DNA of 63,901 nt, the filler included, from Sphacelaria rigidula (Eukaryota): NCBI GenBank assembly GCA_964200075.2. It is 9 parts of 9 records of this genome, joined end to end, with 100 filler letters (N's around TTAATTAATTAA, not from the genome) between each part and the next. Parts side by side here need not be neighbours in the genome. Positions count along the whole stretch, not along the records: positions 56,891 to 63,901 come from CAXNAA020016965.1; 8 more parts are not named here. One strand, 5' to 3'. The notes below the pieces were generated by a model. The model was not told where the DNA came from, made no database searches, and saw only the letters and a list, made by a program, of their open reading frames with translations. Shown here piece by piece: positions 8,130-63,901 of the stretch. The translations under genes were made by a program, and so were the position numbers. Within the stretch, counting starts at the first letter, position 1. Every line of letters starts with the position of its first letter.

Positions 8130-9330
8130 GTCAACGGCCACTGCTCTCCTGTTGGCGGCTCCAGTAGCCTCTTGCTTGTAGCGGAGGTTCGATTGACGTC
8201 GACCTTCGCGTCACCACCAGGGTTTCAAAAAGTGCCTGCGGCGCTGCGGCAGCGCAGATATTTAGGAAAATCTGCGCGCAGCGCAGAGTCCCGACGGGCT
8301 CATCTGAGGCTTCCGCAGAAATTTTTACGCGCCGCAGGCATTTCGCCGGAGGCGAAACAAAAACGTTGCGGCTTCCTTGTCGCCAAAGGCGACGACAAAA
8401 ATTGGGGGTCTTTTTTTGTTCAGTATCCGGAGAAAGTTTTGTCCATTGACGCACAATATCCCGTGCCTTGTTCAAATTATCCTCCAAATGTTCTTTTTTT
8501 CGTGCGTCAAACCGCTGGGAATAGGTTTCACCACGTACAATACCCATTTTTGACTGATTTTGGAAGGTATTTTGAGAGGAAAAGGTCAAATTTCCCCCTC
8601 TGCGGGGCCCCTCCGGAGAGGCCCCTACGCGGGCGGCGCCCTCCGGCGGCTCTCCGGGGGTCTTTCCGGGGGGCTCCTGCGGGGAGCCGCATATCGCCTT
8701 CGGCTCTGGTCTGCGCTACCGCAGACCGCGCCTCCGAACTTTTCGAAATCCTGGTTACCACGCCTCCTCGATTTCCTCCGTCCCCTTCTCGATCCCCTGG
8801 TGCCATTTGCCCGCATTATTTGCACAAGTGACCCAGCGTAGTGCCTTCGATATTCATGCCGTAGACGGGTCACATCTCTCGTCCTCCTTTGCGTCGGACA
8901 GCATCTCTAGCACACCCAGGTACTCCTGGATGCTGCCTCCCTAGTGTCTGAAAGGCCGGCCAGCCTCCTTGAGCCCTTGTATGATGACCCGTCCGCACAT
9001 GATGAGCCTCGGAAGGCGTGCTTCGTTCTGCCGGACGAGGACCCCAGCAAACCAAATTAACGCTTGCGGATGGTCCCCGTCATACGCTCATAGTCGGTCA
9101 TCTCGAGGACAGCTTTTTTGTAAGCCTCCTCTCCGGTCTGATCCTTCCTGCGAGATCGAAATTCTTCCAGTAAACGCTTGCGGTGAGCAGTGCGTACGCA
9201 ATCGAAGTTCTTTCGGCGCAGCGTCCACGAAGTTAATCCGCACAGCATAGCTTCCAACAGATCCCTTCTTCAGCAGCCGGATGTTCAGAGAGAGAGCTGG
9301 ATATTGGGCCGATCGCAACGTTAGGCGCTA
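8130..9330 (-). mobile_element. Degenerate RTE-clade LINE remnant, interrupted by a MITE
   Basis: Minus frames give LSLNIRLLK / LEAMLCGLTSWTLRRKNFDCVRTAHRKRLL / TIRKR / WFAGVLVRQNEARLPRLIMCG..GRP, the RTE C-terminal pattern. Confidence 0.8.
8218..8753. mobile_element. hAT-type non-autonomous element (536 bp)
   Basis: TIRs CAGGGTTTCAAAAAGT / ACTTTTCGAAATCCTG (14 of 16 match); 8-bp TSD GTCACCAC / GTTACCAC (7 of 8). Confidence 0.9.
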
Positions 9331-20118: not shown

Positions 20119-21233
20119 GGTTCGCGCCTGCTGCTGCTATCCCGTGCACCGTACACGCCGCCCACACCAGTAGCACCACGGCTCCCATCGCCACTCTGCC
20201 CAGAAGTGCTACCGTCGTCGTCGACAGAGCGACGGTTGAGGCTGCGGTCACCGGGCTCCAGACCGCTGTTGCTGTCGCTGACCGGCTCACCGTCGAAGCT
20301 GGAATCCATGGAGTCGCCACCGATCGTATCGTCGAACAGATGGCAGTCATCATCGCTGCTGACCGGAAAACCGCCGTCACCGCCGCTGCCTACAACACCA
20401 GTAGCATCACTAGCACTGACGACAGTTCGACGCTCCGCACTAGCGTCATCTCCAGCACCAACGACGCTGTGTGCAGGCCGACGCCCAGCGCTACTTCTAT
20501 TGTCAACACCCACGGCCTTATCGCTGCTGATGCCACCACGACCGGGGGGTGCGCTATTTCCAACATCGCCGTCGCGAGTACGCGGAGTACCAGAACCGCG
20601 GGAGTCGGCACCACCGACGGCATTGTCGTTGCCGAAGGCGGTAGGCTTGGGGATGTCGGTAGGCTTGAGAGCGTCGGCAGGCTTGCGAACGTCTTTAGGC
20701 CTGGATATGTCGGCAGGCTTGCGGATATCGGTAGGCTTGGGAGCGTCGGCAGGCTTGGGAGCGTCGGCAGGCTTGGGAGCGTCCGCAGGCTTGGGGGTGT
20801 CAGCATGCCGGGGGGTGTTGGCAGGCTTGGGGATGTCGGCCGGCCGAGTGTTGTTGGCAGGCTTGGGAGCGTTGGCAGGCTTGGGGATGTCGGCAGGCCG
20901 AGTGGTGTTGGCAGGCTTGGAGATATTGGCAGGCCTGGGAATGTCGGCAGGCTTGGGAGCGTTGACAGGCTTGTTGATGTCGGCAGGCCGGGGGGTGCTG
21001 GCAGGCTTGGGGATGTCGGCAGGCCTGGGGTTGTCGGCAGGCTTGGGAGCGTTGGCAGGCTTGGGGGTGTCGGCAGGCCAGGGGGTGCTGGCAGGCTTGT
21101 TGATGTCGGCAGGCCGGGGGGTGCCGGCAGGCTTGTGGATGTCGGCAGGCCTGGGGTTGTCGGCAGGCTTGGGAGCGTTGGCAGGCTTGGGGATGTCGGC
21201 AGGCCGGGGGGTGCTGGCAGGCTTGTTGATGTC
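20119..21233 (-). CDS. Large exon (5' end lost at the contig edge): 33 x hexapeptide [D/N/S]-x-P-[K/R]-P-A, then a Gly/Ser/Asp-rich disordered region
   Basis: Frame is open from 21233 to the TGA at 20117-20115 (372 codons), with GC-rich third positions. A perfect GTGAGT donor overlaps the TGA, so the exon is probably spliced onward. Confidence 0.7.
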
Positions 21234-21235
21234 GG
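20640..21235. repeat. 18-bp coding minisatellite, about 33 units
   Basis: GGCAGGCTTGGGGATGTC-type units in phase, without indels. Confidence 0.97.
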
Positions 21236-55600: not shown

Positions 55601-58600
55601 GAGACAACTGGCGCTCAGCATCCCGATTGTTAGACAAGAATTGAACAAGCAATGGTGGAGTTGGTGGTGATGGTAATAGGGGTGGTGACAGTAGTGACTT
55701 CCCACCGGCTACGACTTGCTCAGGCTCGTGCGTGCGTGCCGTGTCGGTCCCGTCCCCTCTGATATCGCGCCCGTGTTTTTTTTGCTGTCATCTCGATCCT
55801 ACATTCATGTTATATTTTGTCGTGCCCTACCTCCCACCCATGTATGTTATTTTCACAGTCGTTTTCTATTGCTTGTTGGCCACTTTGATATATCCGAGTT
55901 ACCGCATTTCGCCTCCCTCGAGGGACTGCACTCATGCCACGCGTAGGAGCGGGAAAAGAGTGCCGCACGTTTGCGGCGTGCTCCCATCCGCACAGGGCAC
56001 GTCGTGGATACGTGTGAAGTCTTTCGCTGCTCCGCCGTGGAGGTACTTTGTACCTCGTCGTACTGTGCTGTATTGCCGTGCGTGCTACTGGGCTCTACCT
56101 ATTTGCGTCGTACCGCAAAGGCACGCAGAACGGTTTCGATGGATTCGGCGGTACCTTTTTCGCTATACATTAATGTAGAAATGATCTGGACAAGATGGGG
56201 CATTTTTGCTTGGTGCATACTGAGCTCGCCGGGCTTTGCCGATCTGTTCCCTTACTTCCAAAACACAGACAGGGTGTTTATGAACTGCATGGATGTGGAC
56301 ATTTGGGTGGCAAGCAGGGAGATCATCAGATGAGTAAGTGCACCGTGTCTGGCCTACACACCTTCAAATGTCACCCGCAGTACTGCAGTAGATACTATGT
56401 ACATATGTTTTTCTCGTGCCGATACTTACGACGCTCACTTGTACTCTCTCTGAAAAGATGTTGTGCGTGCTATCAGCAAAATGTTGCACCACGAGCACCT
56501 ACAACGTGAGGCAATGCAGTACCGTTAATATAGTACTACTGTGTAAGCTAACGAGATGACAATATTTTAGAGAGGCAGTCTGCCATCATTCGGGTACCGT
56601 CTACAACTACAGCAACAGAGTTGCTGGGTAACATGCATGTTCTGACTACTCTGTTCTATCGCGGATTTTTACTCACCATCTCTTTGAGCCATACGTTCTG
56701 TATCGAGTGTACATACTATGACACTGTGTTGTGTTGTGTTGTCGTCCCATTTATTCTGGGCACCAGTCTACACCTTTCGGTGTATGTGGGNNNNNNNNNN
56801 NNNNNNNNNNNNNNNNNNNNNNNNNNNNNNNNNNTTAATTAATTAANNNNNNNNNNNNNNNNNNNNNNNNNNNNNNNNNNNNNNNNNNNNGGGGAGTCCC
56901 TCAACAGCATTTAGACGCTGCAGTACTAGCAGACCTGCTAGCGTCACAGACAGTAGGGAAACAATATATGTTCCATGGGTTAGTCCTCAGGCTGATTGTG
57001 GAGGGGTCTTCAAATTGAAGCCAACGCCAAGTGAACACTCCACTATAGGCGCGCTTCTTTACATTCACTTGGGCAGGACGGTTGACATGAGAGGCGAGCT
57101 TCACACGCTAATTAATTAAGCAGATTCGAGCCCGGTACATCCTCAGTATGCCGAATTGTGTACACCAAACGGTCAGACCTGTCAATTTCCCCCATACTTG
57201 CATCTGGGCAAACTGGCTATGTACGCAGGACCATACCCATGTTATCACATGATAATTGAGTGACTGAGCTGTGTTGAAACGCACTGAAATTTAGTACCGC
57301 TGCTTCTGTATAGCTTTTCAACAAATACCGTAGCGCATCCAGACGGGCAGTCAGGTTTTGGTGACGCTACATCAGCCGTTCACCAACGCCAGCCGTGCTT
57401 GAAGGACCGTACTTCAAAACTGGTACAAATGATGTAGAGAAGGTGGCGGTTAAAACTAGCGATGCGCGGAAGGTCGAAACGTTCCGAGCAGACAACTGTC
57501 ATTAACAGGAAGTTGCGAAGTTTATTTGGACGAAACACGGCACCCCCCGGTCAGGGGGGGCAGGTCATTGATCCGGGAGGTTTACTGTTATGAAAAAAAC
57601 GGATGTAAACCCCTCGCAGTTCTCCCTGCTGGACAGTTCGAGAGCTGGGGGAGATCTGCGTCGATACTAAATAAAAACCAGACCCAACCGTATAGTTTAG
57701 TTATGTTCACAACTTTTGGAAAAAGGGCCCAGCAAACCAATCATCGGTTATGGTCTGCTATATATATGAGGGTTGAGAGGTGAACGTTTCCGTTCTACAA
57801 CGGCCGACAGTCGAACGTGAAGCTCCTGTCGCGCGACCAGTGGGTAGTGCAACTAGCCCTGCTGGCGCACGTCGTACCAGAGAGTAGCAATTAGGACAGT
57901 ATCTACTAGAATGTGCACACCTTTTCGAGTACTCGCTCCATATTATCGGAAGGAAATAACACGGGGGATCAAGAATGATCCACCACCAGTCATCAATAAT
58001 TCAAGGAACGGGACTATTTACCCATGTTCACCCTGGCTGGGGTGAACAACTCAATACTGTCACGATTAGGCAGCTACGGAGAGTGCTGCGAGACAAGATA
58101 CCTGCACGAGGCCACCAGACGGACACTACACCATCTCCCGTTGTCGATCTACTCTGCGCCTATCGACAATCCAATTCCAACGCGGTTTGTCTGTCCGTGC
58201 ATGCTATGACTACCATCAGACAAGGCTGCATTCGTCTGGGCAGGGCTTCTGGTCTTGAGGGTCTACGGGTTCCACACATTATTTTGCCGAAATATATCGA
58301 ACAGAAACCGACCAGGCGATTGACTGGTACTGAACAACGTAAGTAATAATTGTGGACATTATGCACTATGCTAGCATGGAGGCCCGACAACGTGCGAATA
58401 AATTGGAGAATGCGCGTGAGTCCGGAGTATGCGTGCGTTATACAATAGGCTCACCCACGAGCAGGCAGGAAATTACTGCACACAGGGAGATGAAGGAGAA
58501 CGAGGACCCAAGATAACAAGACCGCGTTTAGCCGAACAGGTTCTAGAAGCAATATTCTCCCCCGCGTGCCCTTGCAGGTTAACAGGAGGCCGGAAATTGG

Positions 58601-58969
58601 AGGATTATCCCCGGCTATTCCCCATGAAAGGGAAATCTGAGCCGGATGCTCACATGAACCGGTCATGTGATCAAATTTGCTGCCATGTTCTCCTGTTTCC
58701 CTGTTCCACCCCTGCTCGTCTTCCCTCGATGATGTCCACGCTCATATCACGAGGAAAAAATGATGCTGTCAGTTTACCCCATCGTATCTTCTCATCGTTG
58801 ATGAGTTAAGAACGTTCCCAACCCCATTTCGCCAGGAACATTTAAGCAGGAGTACGGTACTGCGTTAATAATATGAAGTACGCTTAACCGGTGTTATGAT
58901 ACCCATGGCATATACGTGCAGGTTATCGTTCCAAGTACCGTATAGCCAACGCGAAAAACCGGCGAAATA

Positions 58970-61117
58970 ATGAGTGGAAATCCTCTGAACCCGCAAGCTC
59001 AACCGTTTTACCCAGCTGGATCAGCTCAACAGTTTCAACAGCCTCCAGTGCAAGCCGCACCGCAGCAGCAACCTGTCGTCCCTGTTCAACAACAACAGGC
59101 TGTCGCACCCCCTCCGCAACAGTTTGTTGGACCCGTTCAACAACAGCAAGCTGCCGCACCTCCTCAGCAACGGTCTGTTGGACCTGTACAGCAACAGCAG
59201 GCTGCCGTACCCCCTCAGCAACAGGTTGTTGGACCTCTGCCGCAGCAGCCAGCTCTACAACAACAACAACAAGGACACCTTGGCCCGATGCACCCGCATG
59301 TCCCGTTGTCCGTTCCTCCGCCTCCTCAGCCGGCAATGTCAGTCCCTGCGCCCCAGTGGGCCCCTCAAGCGCCGGCCGCCGGGAATTTCGCGTATTCCCA
59401 GCTGCCACCCCCGCCACCATTGCCCCCGCAGCGCCGCTCTAGGTATGTGGTTGCACCGGACCCAATCAGTCTGTATAGCAACCCGTTTTATGTATCCCTA
59501 AATCTTTCGGGTACAACACCAGCCGCCCAGTCGAGATTGGACGGGCTGACGCCGTATGGAACCACATACCCCCGTGTTCCCGCACCACCTGCACAGTCAT
59601 TTAACCGCGACTTGTCAGCGGTACTAGGACACATTGAAGCGGTATCTCGTCAGGCAAACACCTTAGCCAAGAATCTAGGCTCCAAGGACGCTGACGCCGT
59701 GGTGTACAAGGGACGATCGGTAGAACACCCCGCAAAGTTGACGTACCGCAACTCCGCAGTCTTGTTCCTAAATCATTTTCATACCACACTAGCGGGGTAC
59801 GAAGGGGGGGGTTGGGGGGTACCCACTGACGCACATATGACAAGCAAGCCGTTATAACCCCAAGTGGACCAATACACGGATAGACGTAGAGTCCTGATAA
59901 TGCGGGTGATGTTGCCAACTTCCGCGACATACACAGAGATGGCCAGCTGGCGGGAGTCGCAGGTTACGGTACTCGGGGTAGCAGGAAATACCATGCGCGC
60001 CCCATTTGGTGATGTAACCGTCCTAGAGTGGCTCAGGAAACTAGTTATCGAGGAAGCAAGAATGGGCACACGCCATGCGGAAGCTGCACTGGCAAACGTA
60101 AAGCTGATCAAGAACGAGAGTTACGTAGCGGCAGCCCACCGTCTAGTTTTGTTGACCATGGCGGCCACAGTCTCTCCAGCTTCACCACACCTCGCGGAAG
60201 AGGAATACCTAGCCTTGCGGTTGTGTGGGATCTTCCATAAGTTGGTAATCCCCAACACGGCAGCACAGCTAGTATCGCATACTCTGCTACAGATACCCAA
60301 CAAGGCCTTGGAGGACGCAGTCCGTTCGACACCATTTAACCACGGAGATCCGTGCAGCCCCGTTATGAAGAGTCGAGGACGCATTCCGTATCGCATATAT
60401 AGTGACTTCGTATCGGCCATCCAACGTCACTGTGAATGTGCCCAGACGACAGCGGACACGATAAATAGCGCTACCGCAGCTCTAACCCGCCCCACTCACA
60501 AACCTATATATGCGGGGTTAGTGGAGACCAAGAAGCGACTACTGAGGAAAGCGGAGGAGGAAGCCCTTGAAGAATACTTCAACTCCGTCGCCGCCTTCAG
60601 TAACCAGAAGGCGTCAATGCCACGCGGCGGCACGCCTTTCGGGGCATCCCCGTCGACTCGCGAAACGCGGAAGCGTCCGCGAGAAGAGTCAGGAAAGCAG
60701 AACAAGCGTGTCAGGTTCGACACGCGAGGAGGTGCACCGGCGACAGGTTTCATTCCCGCCTAAGAGGCGCCCAAAGGGGAGCGTGACGTCGCCATACGTC
60801 TTCTGGGCGTGTGCTTCAACCATGCGTATGGGCGGGACTGCAGCAGCAACGACACAGGGAGCTGCAAGTTCTCCCATGACGAAGACCGCATCCCCTTCGG
60901 CTATTACAAGCAGCCAGAGCAGTCCCAAGCAAAGCCCAGGACAAGGAGAGATGAACTGATGAGCCTACAACTGGGGGACTTGTTCAGGCTTATCGACAAT
61001 CAGTAAGGGGATCAGGGATTCGACCACACCCTGGACCAGCCAGGAAGTGACGCGGAGGAGGACGTCGAGACGGTGGGTGCGCTGAGCAACCGTTTCGACG
61101 CCACAGGCGAGGAATGA
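58970..61117 (+). pseudogene. gag: Gag-like ORF of a Ty3/Gypsy element; one frame with three internal TAA stops (59855, 60761, 61004), ending at TGA 61115-61117
   Basis: ORFs 58970, 59864 and 60809 share a frame. N-terminal Q/P repeats, a basic NLS-like patch and a C-x8-C-x7-C-x3-H finger; lies directly upstream of the protease. Confidence 0.8.
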
Positions 61118-63901
61118 AGGTGCGCCCTGGGGCCGCAGTCCCGGGGGGACAGCGTAGAGGCGGATAGAGTAGCAGCAGTGAAAAGGGTTCATGCACAGCA
61201 ATTGTGGGTGCAAGCTAGAGTTTGGCACCACAGTAAAAGTAGCCTCGCTTTACCAGTAACGTTGTTACTGGACACCTGGGCGGGGGGGGAAAGCTATGCA
61301 TCAAAGCAGTGGTGAAAGTCTTTGGTATTTGGGGGAACATATCGGGGAGACTACAGCGGCAAGGAGCAGGATTCCCGAGAGCAGCAAATCCTAGTGACAG
61401 CAGGACGCCGCCGATGAAGGCTTTGGGGTCAGCGGTAATTCCGGTTCGGTTCCATCCAAAGGATAGAATAAGGAAGGTATGGGTTAGGGTTATCGATGGA
61501 TTGCCGTACAGGTTCATATTGGGGCAAGTTTCTTTAGAAGGAACGAGAGCACACTGTCTTTTGAGGGTCAGTCGGGGTTCCGACCATCACCGGAGGCCCC
61601 GTGGGTGAGATTCGTGTCTAATGGCTCACCAAAACTCGGAGCCGTTAACGCCGATCATCTCACTGGACAGGGAGACTCGGCAGGGTGCGGTCTCTTCTGT
61701 GCTGTCAAGCCGAGAGCGCTCAGCGACGACCCGACGGGGGTATTGTCGGGAGGGAGCGATCTGGCAGCATGGGATGAGGTATGGAAGAGCCTTGGCGCGG
61801 CGTGGGAGGACGACGCTACACTTCAGTGGCCTCTAAGGCTGACGGAGGACGCGCGATTGGAAGGCTTCGTTAGCCAGCTAGTCCCAGGCTACGTGCGAGG
61901 TCCTCATCCGCAGGAACGCCAACTCGTGTTGATCGAACCTTGAAAGTTGTTCGATTTAGATGAGGAAGCTGAGATGGGGGTAGCTAGGGGAGTGCAGTGG
62001 TGGGATCCACAGCTACCGTTGGTATGTAAGGTGGTCAACACGGCCAAGAATGCTCGCCTGGTGAAGAAGGGTATTATAGTGGCGAAAGTTGTGGCCGTGA
62101 GTGTCCGAGATTGCGAGCGGTTGCAGAATCTGTACGTGTCCGACTCGGGCACCACGCTCTATTCGAAGCTGGAGGCTCGAGGGACTGCGCCAGCCCCTCC
62201 CCATCCGCCGCCGGAACCCCAGGAAGGGAGGAAAAGGACACAACTGAAGCCATAGGAGTAGATCTCACAGAAGCGAACATGGGTCAGTTGGGTCCGACGC
62301 AGAAGACACTGCTGTTGTCCATCTTAGGAGACTTCAACGAAACAGGACTTTTTGCGGTGGACCCCAAGAAGGTGAAAGCGGCGCGTGGGGAACCGTTACG
62401 TCTACGACTGAAAGATCCCTGGTGCAAGCCATTCGCTGCCGGTACCAGGCGGTACTCACCAGAACAAGCAACAGCTATACAAGACGAAGATCAGAAATTC
62501 GCGGAGCGGGGGGTCATTGAGCCGTCGACGTCCGCATGTGCAGCCGCTTGCGTCACGGTGCGGAAGAAGGGCGGTAGTTTACGGTTGTGTCAGGATTATC
62601 ATGGACTAAACAAACCCCTAGAGTCGTACAGCGGTGGTTTGGGGGATATGCAGACGATGTACAGTGGCCTGGCGGGATCCAAGTACTCTACGAGTGTGGA
62701 CTTAGCGAGCGGATTTTCCCAGTTGGACGTGGCGAAGGAGGACCGACACCTCACCGCCGTTCGTGACGCGCGCGGGCACTTATGGCAATATCAGCGTTGT
62801 GGATTCGGACTCAAGGTATTACCCGCGACATTTCACCGAACAGTATCCGAAGCGTTGTTGCCAGCGCAGGGTGTCAAGACTTGGTTGGATGATATCTTGT
62901 GGCCTAGCGCGACTTTCGCCGGCCACATGACGGGGTTGAGGGTTGTGCTCTATTGCCTACTGAAGGCAGGCCTCACTGTGAATTTCTAGAAATCACAGTG
63001 GTGCACCCAGCAACAGGACTTCGTAGGGATGACGATCGACGTGTCGGAAATACGACCTTCTCAGTCTAAGATCGAGGCGATCGCCCAGCTGAGGGAGCCG
63101 CAGAGGGTAGAAGAGCTAAGGTCATTCTTAGGTATGACCGGATATCTGCGGAGGTACATGAAAGGGTACAGCAATACGGCGGCACCACTTACAGACTTGC
63201 TGAGGGACCCACGATTCGCCTCCAAGCGAGCCCGGGGGATGGAGATCCCATGGGGGGACCAACAGCAACAAGCATACCTCGACTTCAAGAGCCGATCTTA
63301 GCATACCGGGATTGGAATGAACAATTCGTGGTACACTCAGACGCTTCAGAGTTCGCAGCAGGGGCCGCCCTGGCCCAAGAGGCAGATGAGAGGGAATGGA
63401 TCATCGACTACGCCAGCCACGGATGGTCTCGGGCGGATGATGAAAGATCAGCATCAGAGAGGGAAGCAGTCGCTGTTCTGTGGTCCGTGGAGCGATTCAG
63501 ATCATATCTATGGGGGCGAGAGTTTACCCTAGTCACGGATTGCAGTGCGTTGACATGGTTGTTTCGTAGCCAAAACTTGTCGCCTAAGTTCCACCGGTGG
63601 GCGCTGAGATTGATGGAGTATGATATGGTCCTCAAGTGGCGAGCTGGACGCGAACACCAGTTGCCAGACGCTCTGTCTAGGCTGCAAGGGAGCGAGCCCA
63701 GGGGAAGTGATATTGACGTGTCATTCCCTGACGATGATTCCGAAGCGGTACCAGGCGGAGGAGGAGGACCACAAGGACCCAAACCAGATGGGGTGTTGCT
63801 GAAGGAACTGGAGGCTGAGTACCCGAAAGAATCCGCAGACCTGATGGCATTGGCGTTGGAGGAAGTCAGCGCGTGGTATCCACCGGAAACGGGGGAAGGA
63901 G
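61118..63901 (+). pseudogene. pol: Ty3/Gypsy pol: protease, spacer, reverse transcriptase, RNase H (integrase would lie beyond the contig end); has stops and frameshifts
   Basis: LLDT(W)AG at 61271 and DGLPYRFILG (protease); VIEPSTS, LRLCQDY, VDLASGF, FGLK..PATF, WLDD (RT); VHSDAS, EREAVA, LVTDCSAL, RWALRL, PDALSRL (RNase H). PR-RT-RH order. Confidence 0.95.

Follow-up and report, generated by a model that had tools for sequence, protein, structure and literature searches.

An inherited in-frame TGA and a covarying hairpin point to probable programmed readthrough between gag and pol in Ty3/gypsy retrotransposons of Sphacelaria rigidula

Main

In-frame stops between gag and pol are already known in Ty3/gypsy retrotransposons (PMC4600332, PMC10085805); this and later statements on described systems follow the accessible portions of the papers cited. 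Fission-yeast gypsy elements carry an in-frame TGA between the two genes within a conserved GAA-TGA-CT (PMC10085805), and Tj1 loses activity without its gag-pol stop (PMC4600332). In diatom elements, at most a single stop or frameshift is reported to separate gag from pol (PMC2806351). Stems follow UGA at a distance of 7-12 nucleotides (nt) in alphaviruses, furoviruses and Drosophila kelch, and of 6 nt in SEPN1 (PMC3159437). Structural support exists for few readthrough signals of retrotransposons, and in the best-studied one, Tca2 of Candida albicans, the mechanism was left open. Here we analysed a 63,901-nt stretch of joined Sphacelaria rigidula contigs (the window, along which all coordinates count). 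Its final contig, starting at 56891, holds a decayed Ty3/gypsy long terminal repeat (LTR) retrotransposon, itself dead. For the gag-pol junction of this copy, an original prediction had proposed stop-codon readthrough at a TGA followed by a hairpin or pseudoknot, taking murine leukaemia virus (MuLV) as the model and most Ty3/gypsy elements as users of frameshifting or a single open reading frame (ORF). Comparison of copies across the genome reveals an inherited stop, a frame shared by gag and pol, no conserved AUG between them, a conserved geometry and a covarying stem. Readthrough stands as the best explanation; the MuLV-like pseudoknot does not, and hairpin-stimulated UGA readthrough and the fission-yeast gypsy elements are closer analogues than MuLV.

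A TGA inherited between gag and pol

Besides family A, to which the window copy belongs, genome-wide protease searches yielded families B, C and D and a single copy of a fifth family, E (L136). Pol identity among families is 39-57%, and DNA similarity is only patchy. We collected 89 distinct junctions, dropped 8 that had been retrieved via a motif pattern, re-anchored one misaligned row (L165) and counted 81, including the window copy. Outside this count are 29 loci whose alignment does not span the junction (truncated copies or a gag-less derivative described below) and 5 without a DNA match. An exact-pattern motif search gave 46 matches against 0 for the reversed control; as such a search favours copies with the motif, it entered none of the counts. 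The S. rigidula genome is the single source of junction DNA; scans of metagenome and viral contigs yielded no confirmed relative in other species' DNA.

The junction codon is TGA in 73 of the 81 copies, which span four families, and TAA, CGA and TGG in 4, 2 and 2; a stop of any kind thus stands at 77. By family, TGA is found in 26/28 copies of A, 12/12 of B, 21/23 of C and 14/18 of D, and each of the remaining codons can be reached from TGA by a single transition, as expected from decay. Position 61115 begins a stop in 23 of 24 other family-A copies, whereas the three TAAs that interrupt the window copy's gag ORF (59855, 60761 and 61004) are matched by a stop in 0/18, 0/24 and 0/24 copies, and its three later stops in 1/21, 0/17 and 0/7. 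Across 892 codon columns of a sister copy, the TGA column is the sole one with a stop as its commonest codon. UGA is not a general tryptophan codon here, because 17 tryptophan columns are overwhelmingly TGG (290 of 320 cells, with 9 TGA and 3 TAG). Judged by these family counts, the TGA at 61115 is an inherited gag stop and not a decay mutation. The original prediction had allowed for the latter and had proposed the alignment that now settles the point: TGA is fixed, the three TAAs are copy-specific and the consensus at 61115 is no sense codon. As in programmed gag-pol readthrough, a single inherited in-frame stop lies between the two genes.

A conserved hairpin 7 nt downstream

The window copy has the letters that had been described, with TGA at 61115-61117, AGGTGCG at 61118-61124, CCCTGGGG at 61125-61132, CCGC at 61133-61136, TCCCGGGG at 61139-61146 and GCGG at 61160-61163. 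After the stop, its natural junction reads AGGTGCG CCCTGGGG CCGCAG TCCCGGGG. The proposed stem does pair and is conserved across families. In the family register 61125-61132 pairs with 61140-61147; the 3' arm of the window copy pairs one base upstream, at 61139-61146, because of a private substitution at 61143. Copies of the other families read, after the stop:

L063 (B): AGGTGCG CCCCGGG T AGT ACCTC ACT CCCGGGG
L067 (C): GGGGACG CCCCAGGT ATTCTCA ACCTGGGG
L085 (D): AGGCGCG CCCCAGGT GCAATTG ACCTGGGG
L136 (E): GAGTACG CCCCAGGT TTCAGCG ACCTTGGG

Families A-D and the single E copy all keep the TGA, the 7-nt spacer and a GC-rich stem of 7-8 base pairs (bp), while the loop sequence varies. We scored 400 cells in 50 selected rows of families A, C, D and E: 93% are paired, against 68% with the partner slid by one. 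Stem pair 5 is A-U in 29 of these rows and G-C in 19, pair 8 is U-A in 30 and G-C in 18, and a third double change, U-A to C-G, affects the inner stem of a family-B subfamily. The 5' partner in each of pairs 5 and 8 occupies a silent third codon position and changes of the 3' partner alter the amino acid, which leaves the matched changes unexplained by selection on the protein. Within family A, the 11 codons of spacer and hairpin hold shared variants at codon positions 1/2/3 of 1/0/0, with none at third positions, compared with 0.35-0.47 shared third-position variants per codon in the flanking genes. The minimum-energy fold of the window copy includes the stem. Folding of a 40-nt window stretch gave z -2.5 (6 of 300); a 73-nt stretch did not exceed shuffles in stability (z -0.93, 31 of 200). 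Rfam returned one sub-threshold snoRNA match only across 7 loci. On this comparative evidence, the hairpin 7 nt after the TGA is conserved and covaries between families, with compensatory changes at pairs 5 and 8 (the number of pairs with double changes is not above shuffles), and the RNA would be expected to adopt this fold in the cell.

The further claim of a MuLV-like pseudoknot, formed by pairing of the loop CCGC with GCGG at 61160-61163, was not borne out. That site reads GCGG in 4 of 27 family-A copies, the still pairable GTGG in 8 and a non-pairing sequence in 15, leaving the second helix fully pairable in 12 of 27. Families D and E have no positional equivalent, and family C has a 5-bp candidate. 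In random 20-nt windows, such loops find 4 bp in 51-59% of cases and 5 bp in 15-32%; the loop of the window copy, tried against 500 random 20-nt windows of the element, finds a helix of at least 4 bp in 51%. We rejected the pseudoknot because its second helix is unconserved and at chance level, and treat the structure as a hairpin.

Gag and pol in one frame

The TGA shares its frame with the upstream gag ORF (ATG at 58970) and with the downstream protease motif LLDT (61265-61276, its D at 61271). As had been described, the frame is open up to LLDT, with no ATG ahead of it; the open stretch after the stop measures 65 codons. Sister copy L017 is open for 300 codons before the TGA and 591 after it, and L004 has an open gag across all 555 codons available upstream. 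Variants common to at least three family-A copies fall at codon positions 1/2/3 as 14/16/47 in the last 100 gag codons and, in the same frame, as 12/6/50 in the protease. The distance from the stop to the catalytic aspartate is 51 codons in A, 83 or 75 in B, 50 in C and 50 in D, in frame 0 in most copies, and the linker differs by whole codons between families that keep TGA, 7 nt and stem. Of 61 copies, 3 have an AUG ahead of the first protease strand, each time as a private change; as in programmed readthrough, pol has no separate AUG of its own before the protease.

We retrieved 157 proteins, and the 25 that show the catalytic motif carry no more than 84 residues ahead of it, as expected if a stop usually lies just upstream. 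P0162 is an exception that bears on the question both ways. This stop-free relative leads without interruption from a CCCH finger via an acidic tail to the protease, and its alignment stays in one frame over the TGA of both family A and family B, which favours readthrough. Both P0162 and P0051, which differ at 12 of 259 residues and come from outside this genome, carry leucine at the stop position; they may stem from a lineage without the stop, or from decayed copies that gene calling prefers. P0015, from Ectocarpus, is the sole named protein among 10 relatives looked up, and a weak search of 283 candidates found no longer protein resembling the gag C-terminus.

A multi-copy non-autonomous derivative of family A (L027-L029, L042, L044, L046, L050, L053, L054, L056-L058, L060, L168-L175) is without gag, stop, hairpin and most of the reverse transcriptase (RT), keeps a piece of the protease and joins about 70 nt after the stop position. 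It was considered as a spliced pol retrocopy and rejected, given about 400 unalignable bases at the junction and the loss of RT as well.

The element and its surroundings

The window copy is laid out as follows.

56948-58969, + strand: 5' non-coding part of the element, common to sister copies (83-87% identity to L185 from 56948)
58970-61117, + strand: gag, with a Q/P-rich N-terminus, CCCH finger and acidic tail; three private TAA stops in this copy
60812-60877, + strand: CCCH-type zinc finger at the nucleocapsid position of gag (C-x8-C-x7-C-x3-H, read from the translation)
61115-61117, + strand: TGA stop, inherited and in frame with gag upstream and pol downstream (73/81 junctions TGA)
61118-61124, + strand: purine-rich spacer with CG at its end, 7 nt in all five families
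61125-61147, + strand: predicted GC-rich hairpin with an 8-bp stem and a loop of about 7 nt of unconserved sequence (pairing and double changes)
61148-61198, + strand: variable in-frame linker from hairpin to protease, differing in length between families
61160-61163, + strand: GCGG, proposed as second pseudoknot helix; not conserved and judged outside the signal
61199-61605, + strand: retroviral-type aspartic protease, decayed and frameshifted in this copy
62561-62983, + strand: RT (Pfam RVT_1, E 7.8e-08)
63310-63621, + strand: RNase H (Pfam RT_RNaseH, E 6.3e-28), with the integrase past the contig end

The order of Pol is protease, RT and RNase H in the window, then integrase in sister copies. 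Integrase_H2C2 and rve come after RNase H in L101, L106 and L116, and this position makes the element Ty3/gypsy type. The protease of sister copy L017 has an Atlas score of 0.96 to RVP/gag-asp_proteas clusters, and a predicted model of relative P0037 (alignment A2, pLDDT 86.7) matches the Ddi1 retroviral-protease fold (E 4.6e-06); a PDB sequence search with the protease region gave 0 matches. The position, size and CCCH finger of gag fit Ty3/gypsy, with Atlas links to zf-CCCH and Retrotrans_gag clusters all below 0.9, no Pfam gag match in the window or sister copies and a weak match of the window finger to zf-CCCH_DUS3L (E 0.024, below cutoff). The CCCH-type finger replaces the usual CCHC knuckle at the nucleocapsid position, and a similar finger occurs in families C and D. 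From 58029, the 5' non-coding part is 75-77% identical to five other copies; no LTR lies within 56948-58969, where nothing matched the family 3' ends (the contig starts at 56891). Paired LTRs with 86-88% identity, followed by TGG, are present in family-C copy L113. In family A, copies carry a purine tract and a 3' repeat of the TG...CA type; TGG follows the end of this repeat in L023 and L060, and no paired 5' LTR turned up in the window or in the stretches of sister loci examined.

Several further features came to light. A PAM2-like motif (58985-59017; Pfam E 0.028, below cutoff) sits at the gag N-terminus, ahead of the Q/P-rich repeats. If genuine, the motif could be a binding site for poly(A)-binding protein, like that of eRF3, and might bear on termination. 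Between protease and RT, at 61600-62250, lies a domain of about 130 residues (WEDD..TLQW to ARGVQWW) that is present in all relatives and has no Pfam match. The Pol C-terminus of family-D copy L117 (7568-8512) has a Tudor-like match (PF21743, E 3e-05, below cutoff) in the place where chromoviruses carry a chromodomain. On the 10-kb contig C7195, two protease matches of family B score identically and face opposite ways (755-1153 on the + strand and 8926-9324 on the - strand), either an inverted duplication or an assembly artefact. Elsewhere, the window has a tandem array of about 600 bp at 20639-21235, with 18-bp-based units (periods 36, 54 and 90), and a gap of Ns at 56791-56890 holding a short TTAATTAATTAA spacer, directly after which the element's contig begins. 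GC content is about 50%, and the window contains no tRNA gene.

Probable readthrough and its alternatives

These junctions are likely to be sites of programmed UGA readthrough, stimulated by a hairpin, in a Ty3/gypsy clade. One genomic RNA would be translated from the gag AUG. Most ribosomes would stop at the UGA and release Gag; a minority would decode it with a near-cognate tRNA, inserting the corresponding residue, and continue in frame to produce Gag-Pol. The 8-bp GC hairpin, 7 nt downstream and near the mRNA entry channel, would act as the stimulator, as a stem-loop rather than a pseudoknot. There is precedent both in the requirement of Tj1 for its gag stop (PMC4600332) and in 3' stems 7-12 nt from UGA that stimulate, or are predicted to stimulate, readthrough (PMC3159437).

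A number of observations weigh against this interpretation. At +4, 80 of 81 junctions have A or G and one has T, none the permissive C, and a similar conserved Tca2 junction gave no readthrough in a yeast reporter (PMC2194720). The hairpin could also serve packaging or dimerisation. Its covariation amounts to about three independent double changes (about two behind the 50-row cells), and pairs with double changes are not above shuffles (4 vs 3.0; 109 of 500). The stem is weakened in subfamily A2 (L030, L038, L043), and folding of 40-nt stretches is mixed, with z of +0.4 in L017, +1.7 in L038 and -1.6 to -4.1 in five others. The linker has little third-position bias (7/4/9). Finally, the stop is not universal in the clade, because P0162 and P0051 carry leucine there.

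Four sequencing runs, three of them only presumed to be RNA, were assembled as contigs. One contig of run X7 crosses the stop without interruption from 60770 to 61163, and the joints listed include no GT..AG joint spanning the stop. The continuous contig cannot separate the readings, because unspliced RNA is expected under all of them.

It is possible, though unlikely, that readthrough needs distant RNA elements or element or host factors, as in Tca2, or that the hairpin is kept for another role such as packaging while the UGA is leaky alone. The Tca2 junction by itself gave no readthrough even though Pol is made from an RNA of gag-UGA-pol layout (PMC2194720), and in fission-yeast gypsy elements the conserved part is a context of 8 nt, the accessible text mentioning no structure (PMC10085805). 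The stem described here is also short, besides being weakened in A2. Against this, the exact 7-nt spacing in five families with otherwise unalignable flanks ties the stem to the stop codon.

We regard as improbable that Pol comes from a separate message, whether a spliced RNA that skips the stop or one from an internal promoter with non-AUG initiation. Foamy-virus pol is expressed from spliced RNA, and family A has conserved frame-0 AG dinucleotides at +21 and +81 after the stop. The Tca2 junction holds a minor promoter (PMC2194720), and splicing regulates Gag and Pol in copia elements (PMC5580714). However, no acceptor position is common to the families, there is no pyrimidine tract (pyrimidine fraction 0.29-0.59), and the gag-less derivative family offers no clean splice product. 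Strict frame continuity across the stop, seen in all families, would moreover be unnecessary.

Decoding of the UGA as selenocysteine, with the hairpin as a SEPN1-like redefinition element and a selenocysteine insertion sequence (SECIS) elsewhere in the RNA, seems very improbable. The codon is UGA in all five families, and brown algae have selenoproteins. The SEPN1 stem lies 6 nt from its UGA (PMC3159437). Yet Rfam gave no SECIS match in 7 loci (69,306 bases, without a positive control from this organism), and a crude SECIS pattern gave 0 matches in 9 downstream regions, a weak result for want of a positive control. The five UGAs are not independent, because the families share ancestry, and Tj1 and Tca2 likewise have UGA, although their hosts are not known to use selenocysteine. 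There is only a slim chance that the elements borrow host selenocysteine recoding, with the hairpin and a divergent SECIS missed by the scans setting the ratio of Gag to Gag-Pol; were it so, transposition would be tied to selenium supply.

Stop-restart at an overlapping AUGA, or a frameshift around the stop, is scarcely credible: ATGA overlaps the stop in families A and C but is absent in B, D and E, and its AUG is in the -1 frame, which closes after about 17 codons in family A, while the protease is in frame 0. As for a decay mutation or UGA as a sense codon, the window copy does have many private stops and frameshifts, but the family and tryptophan counts given above leave this a negligible prospect.

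Comparison with known systems

Hairpin-stimulated readthrough at these junctions would introduce no new mechanism. In-frame gag-TGA-pol is already known from fission-yeast gypsy elements and Tca2. What one genome offers is a single geometry shared by five divergent families, together with natural compensatory variants. In a stramenopile, the signal would combine a compact stimulatory hairpin with a UGA-purine context, and we found no earlier report of this; the literature searched (titles and abstract openings, with most subscription papers out of reach) held no report of such a signal in brown algae. For annotators, a gag-pol TGA here is not a sign of decay.

The S. rigidula elements resemble Tj1, Tcry1 and Tosmo1-3 in being Ty3/gypsy elements with an in-frame gag-TGA-pol and no pol AUG, and family A shares with them the GAA before the stop (PMC4600332, PMC10085805). 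They differ in having a purine at +4, where those elements have C, and a covarying hairpin, where the accessible text on those elements names none. The function of the stop has been tested experimentally in Tj1 and is predicted from sequence in S. rigidula. Like Tca2, they combine an in-frame gag-UGA-pol with a purine-rich spacer and a conserved downstream structure; unlike them, Tca2 has the Pol order protease, integrase, RT (copia type), an 8-nt spacer and a predicted pseudoknot (PMC2194720).

With MuLV they share an in-frame stop at the Gag/protease boundary, a purine-rich spacer and a GC-rich stem, but MuLV uses UAG, an 8-nt spacer and an H-type pseudoknot in place of UGA, 7 nt and a simple hairpin (PMC3159437, PMC13517186). 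All families here have UGA and 7 nt, and the second helix is not conserved, which sets them apart from the MuLV signal. As in alphaviruses, furoviruses, kelch and SEPN1, UGA is followed after 6-12 nt by a stem with compensatory changes; those systems mostly have UGA-C, long loops and stems of 10-16 bp, compared with an 8-bp stem and a 7-nt loop in a retrotransposon here (PMC3159437). The junctions share with stem-loop UGA readthrough (Type II as extended in PMC3159437) a conserved 3' stem near UGA with compensatory changes; in place of the UGA-C context of that class (CGG or CUA), 80 of 81 junctions have a +4 purine. The layout is best read as one that would work like hairpin-stimulated UGA readthrough, outside the MuLV signal class.

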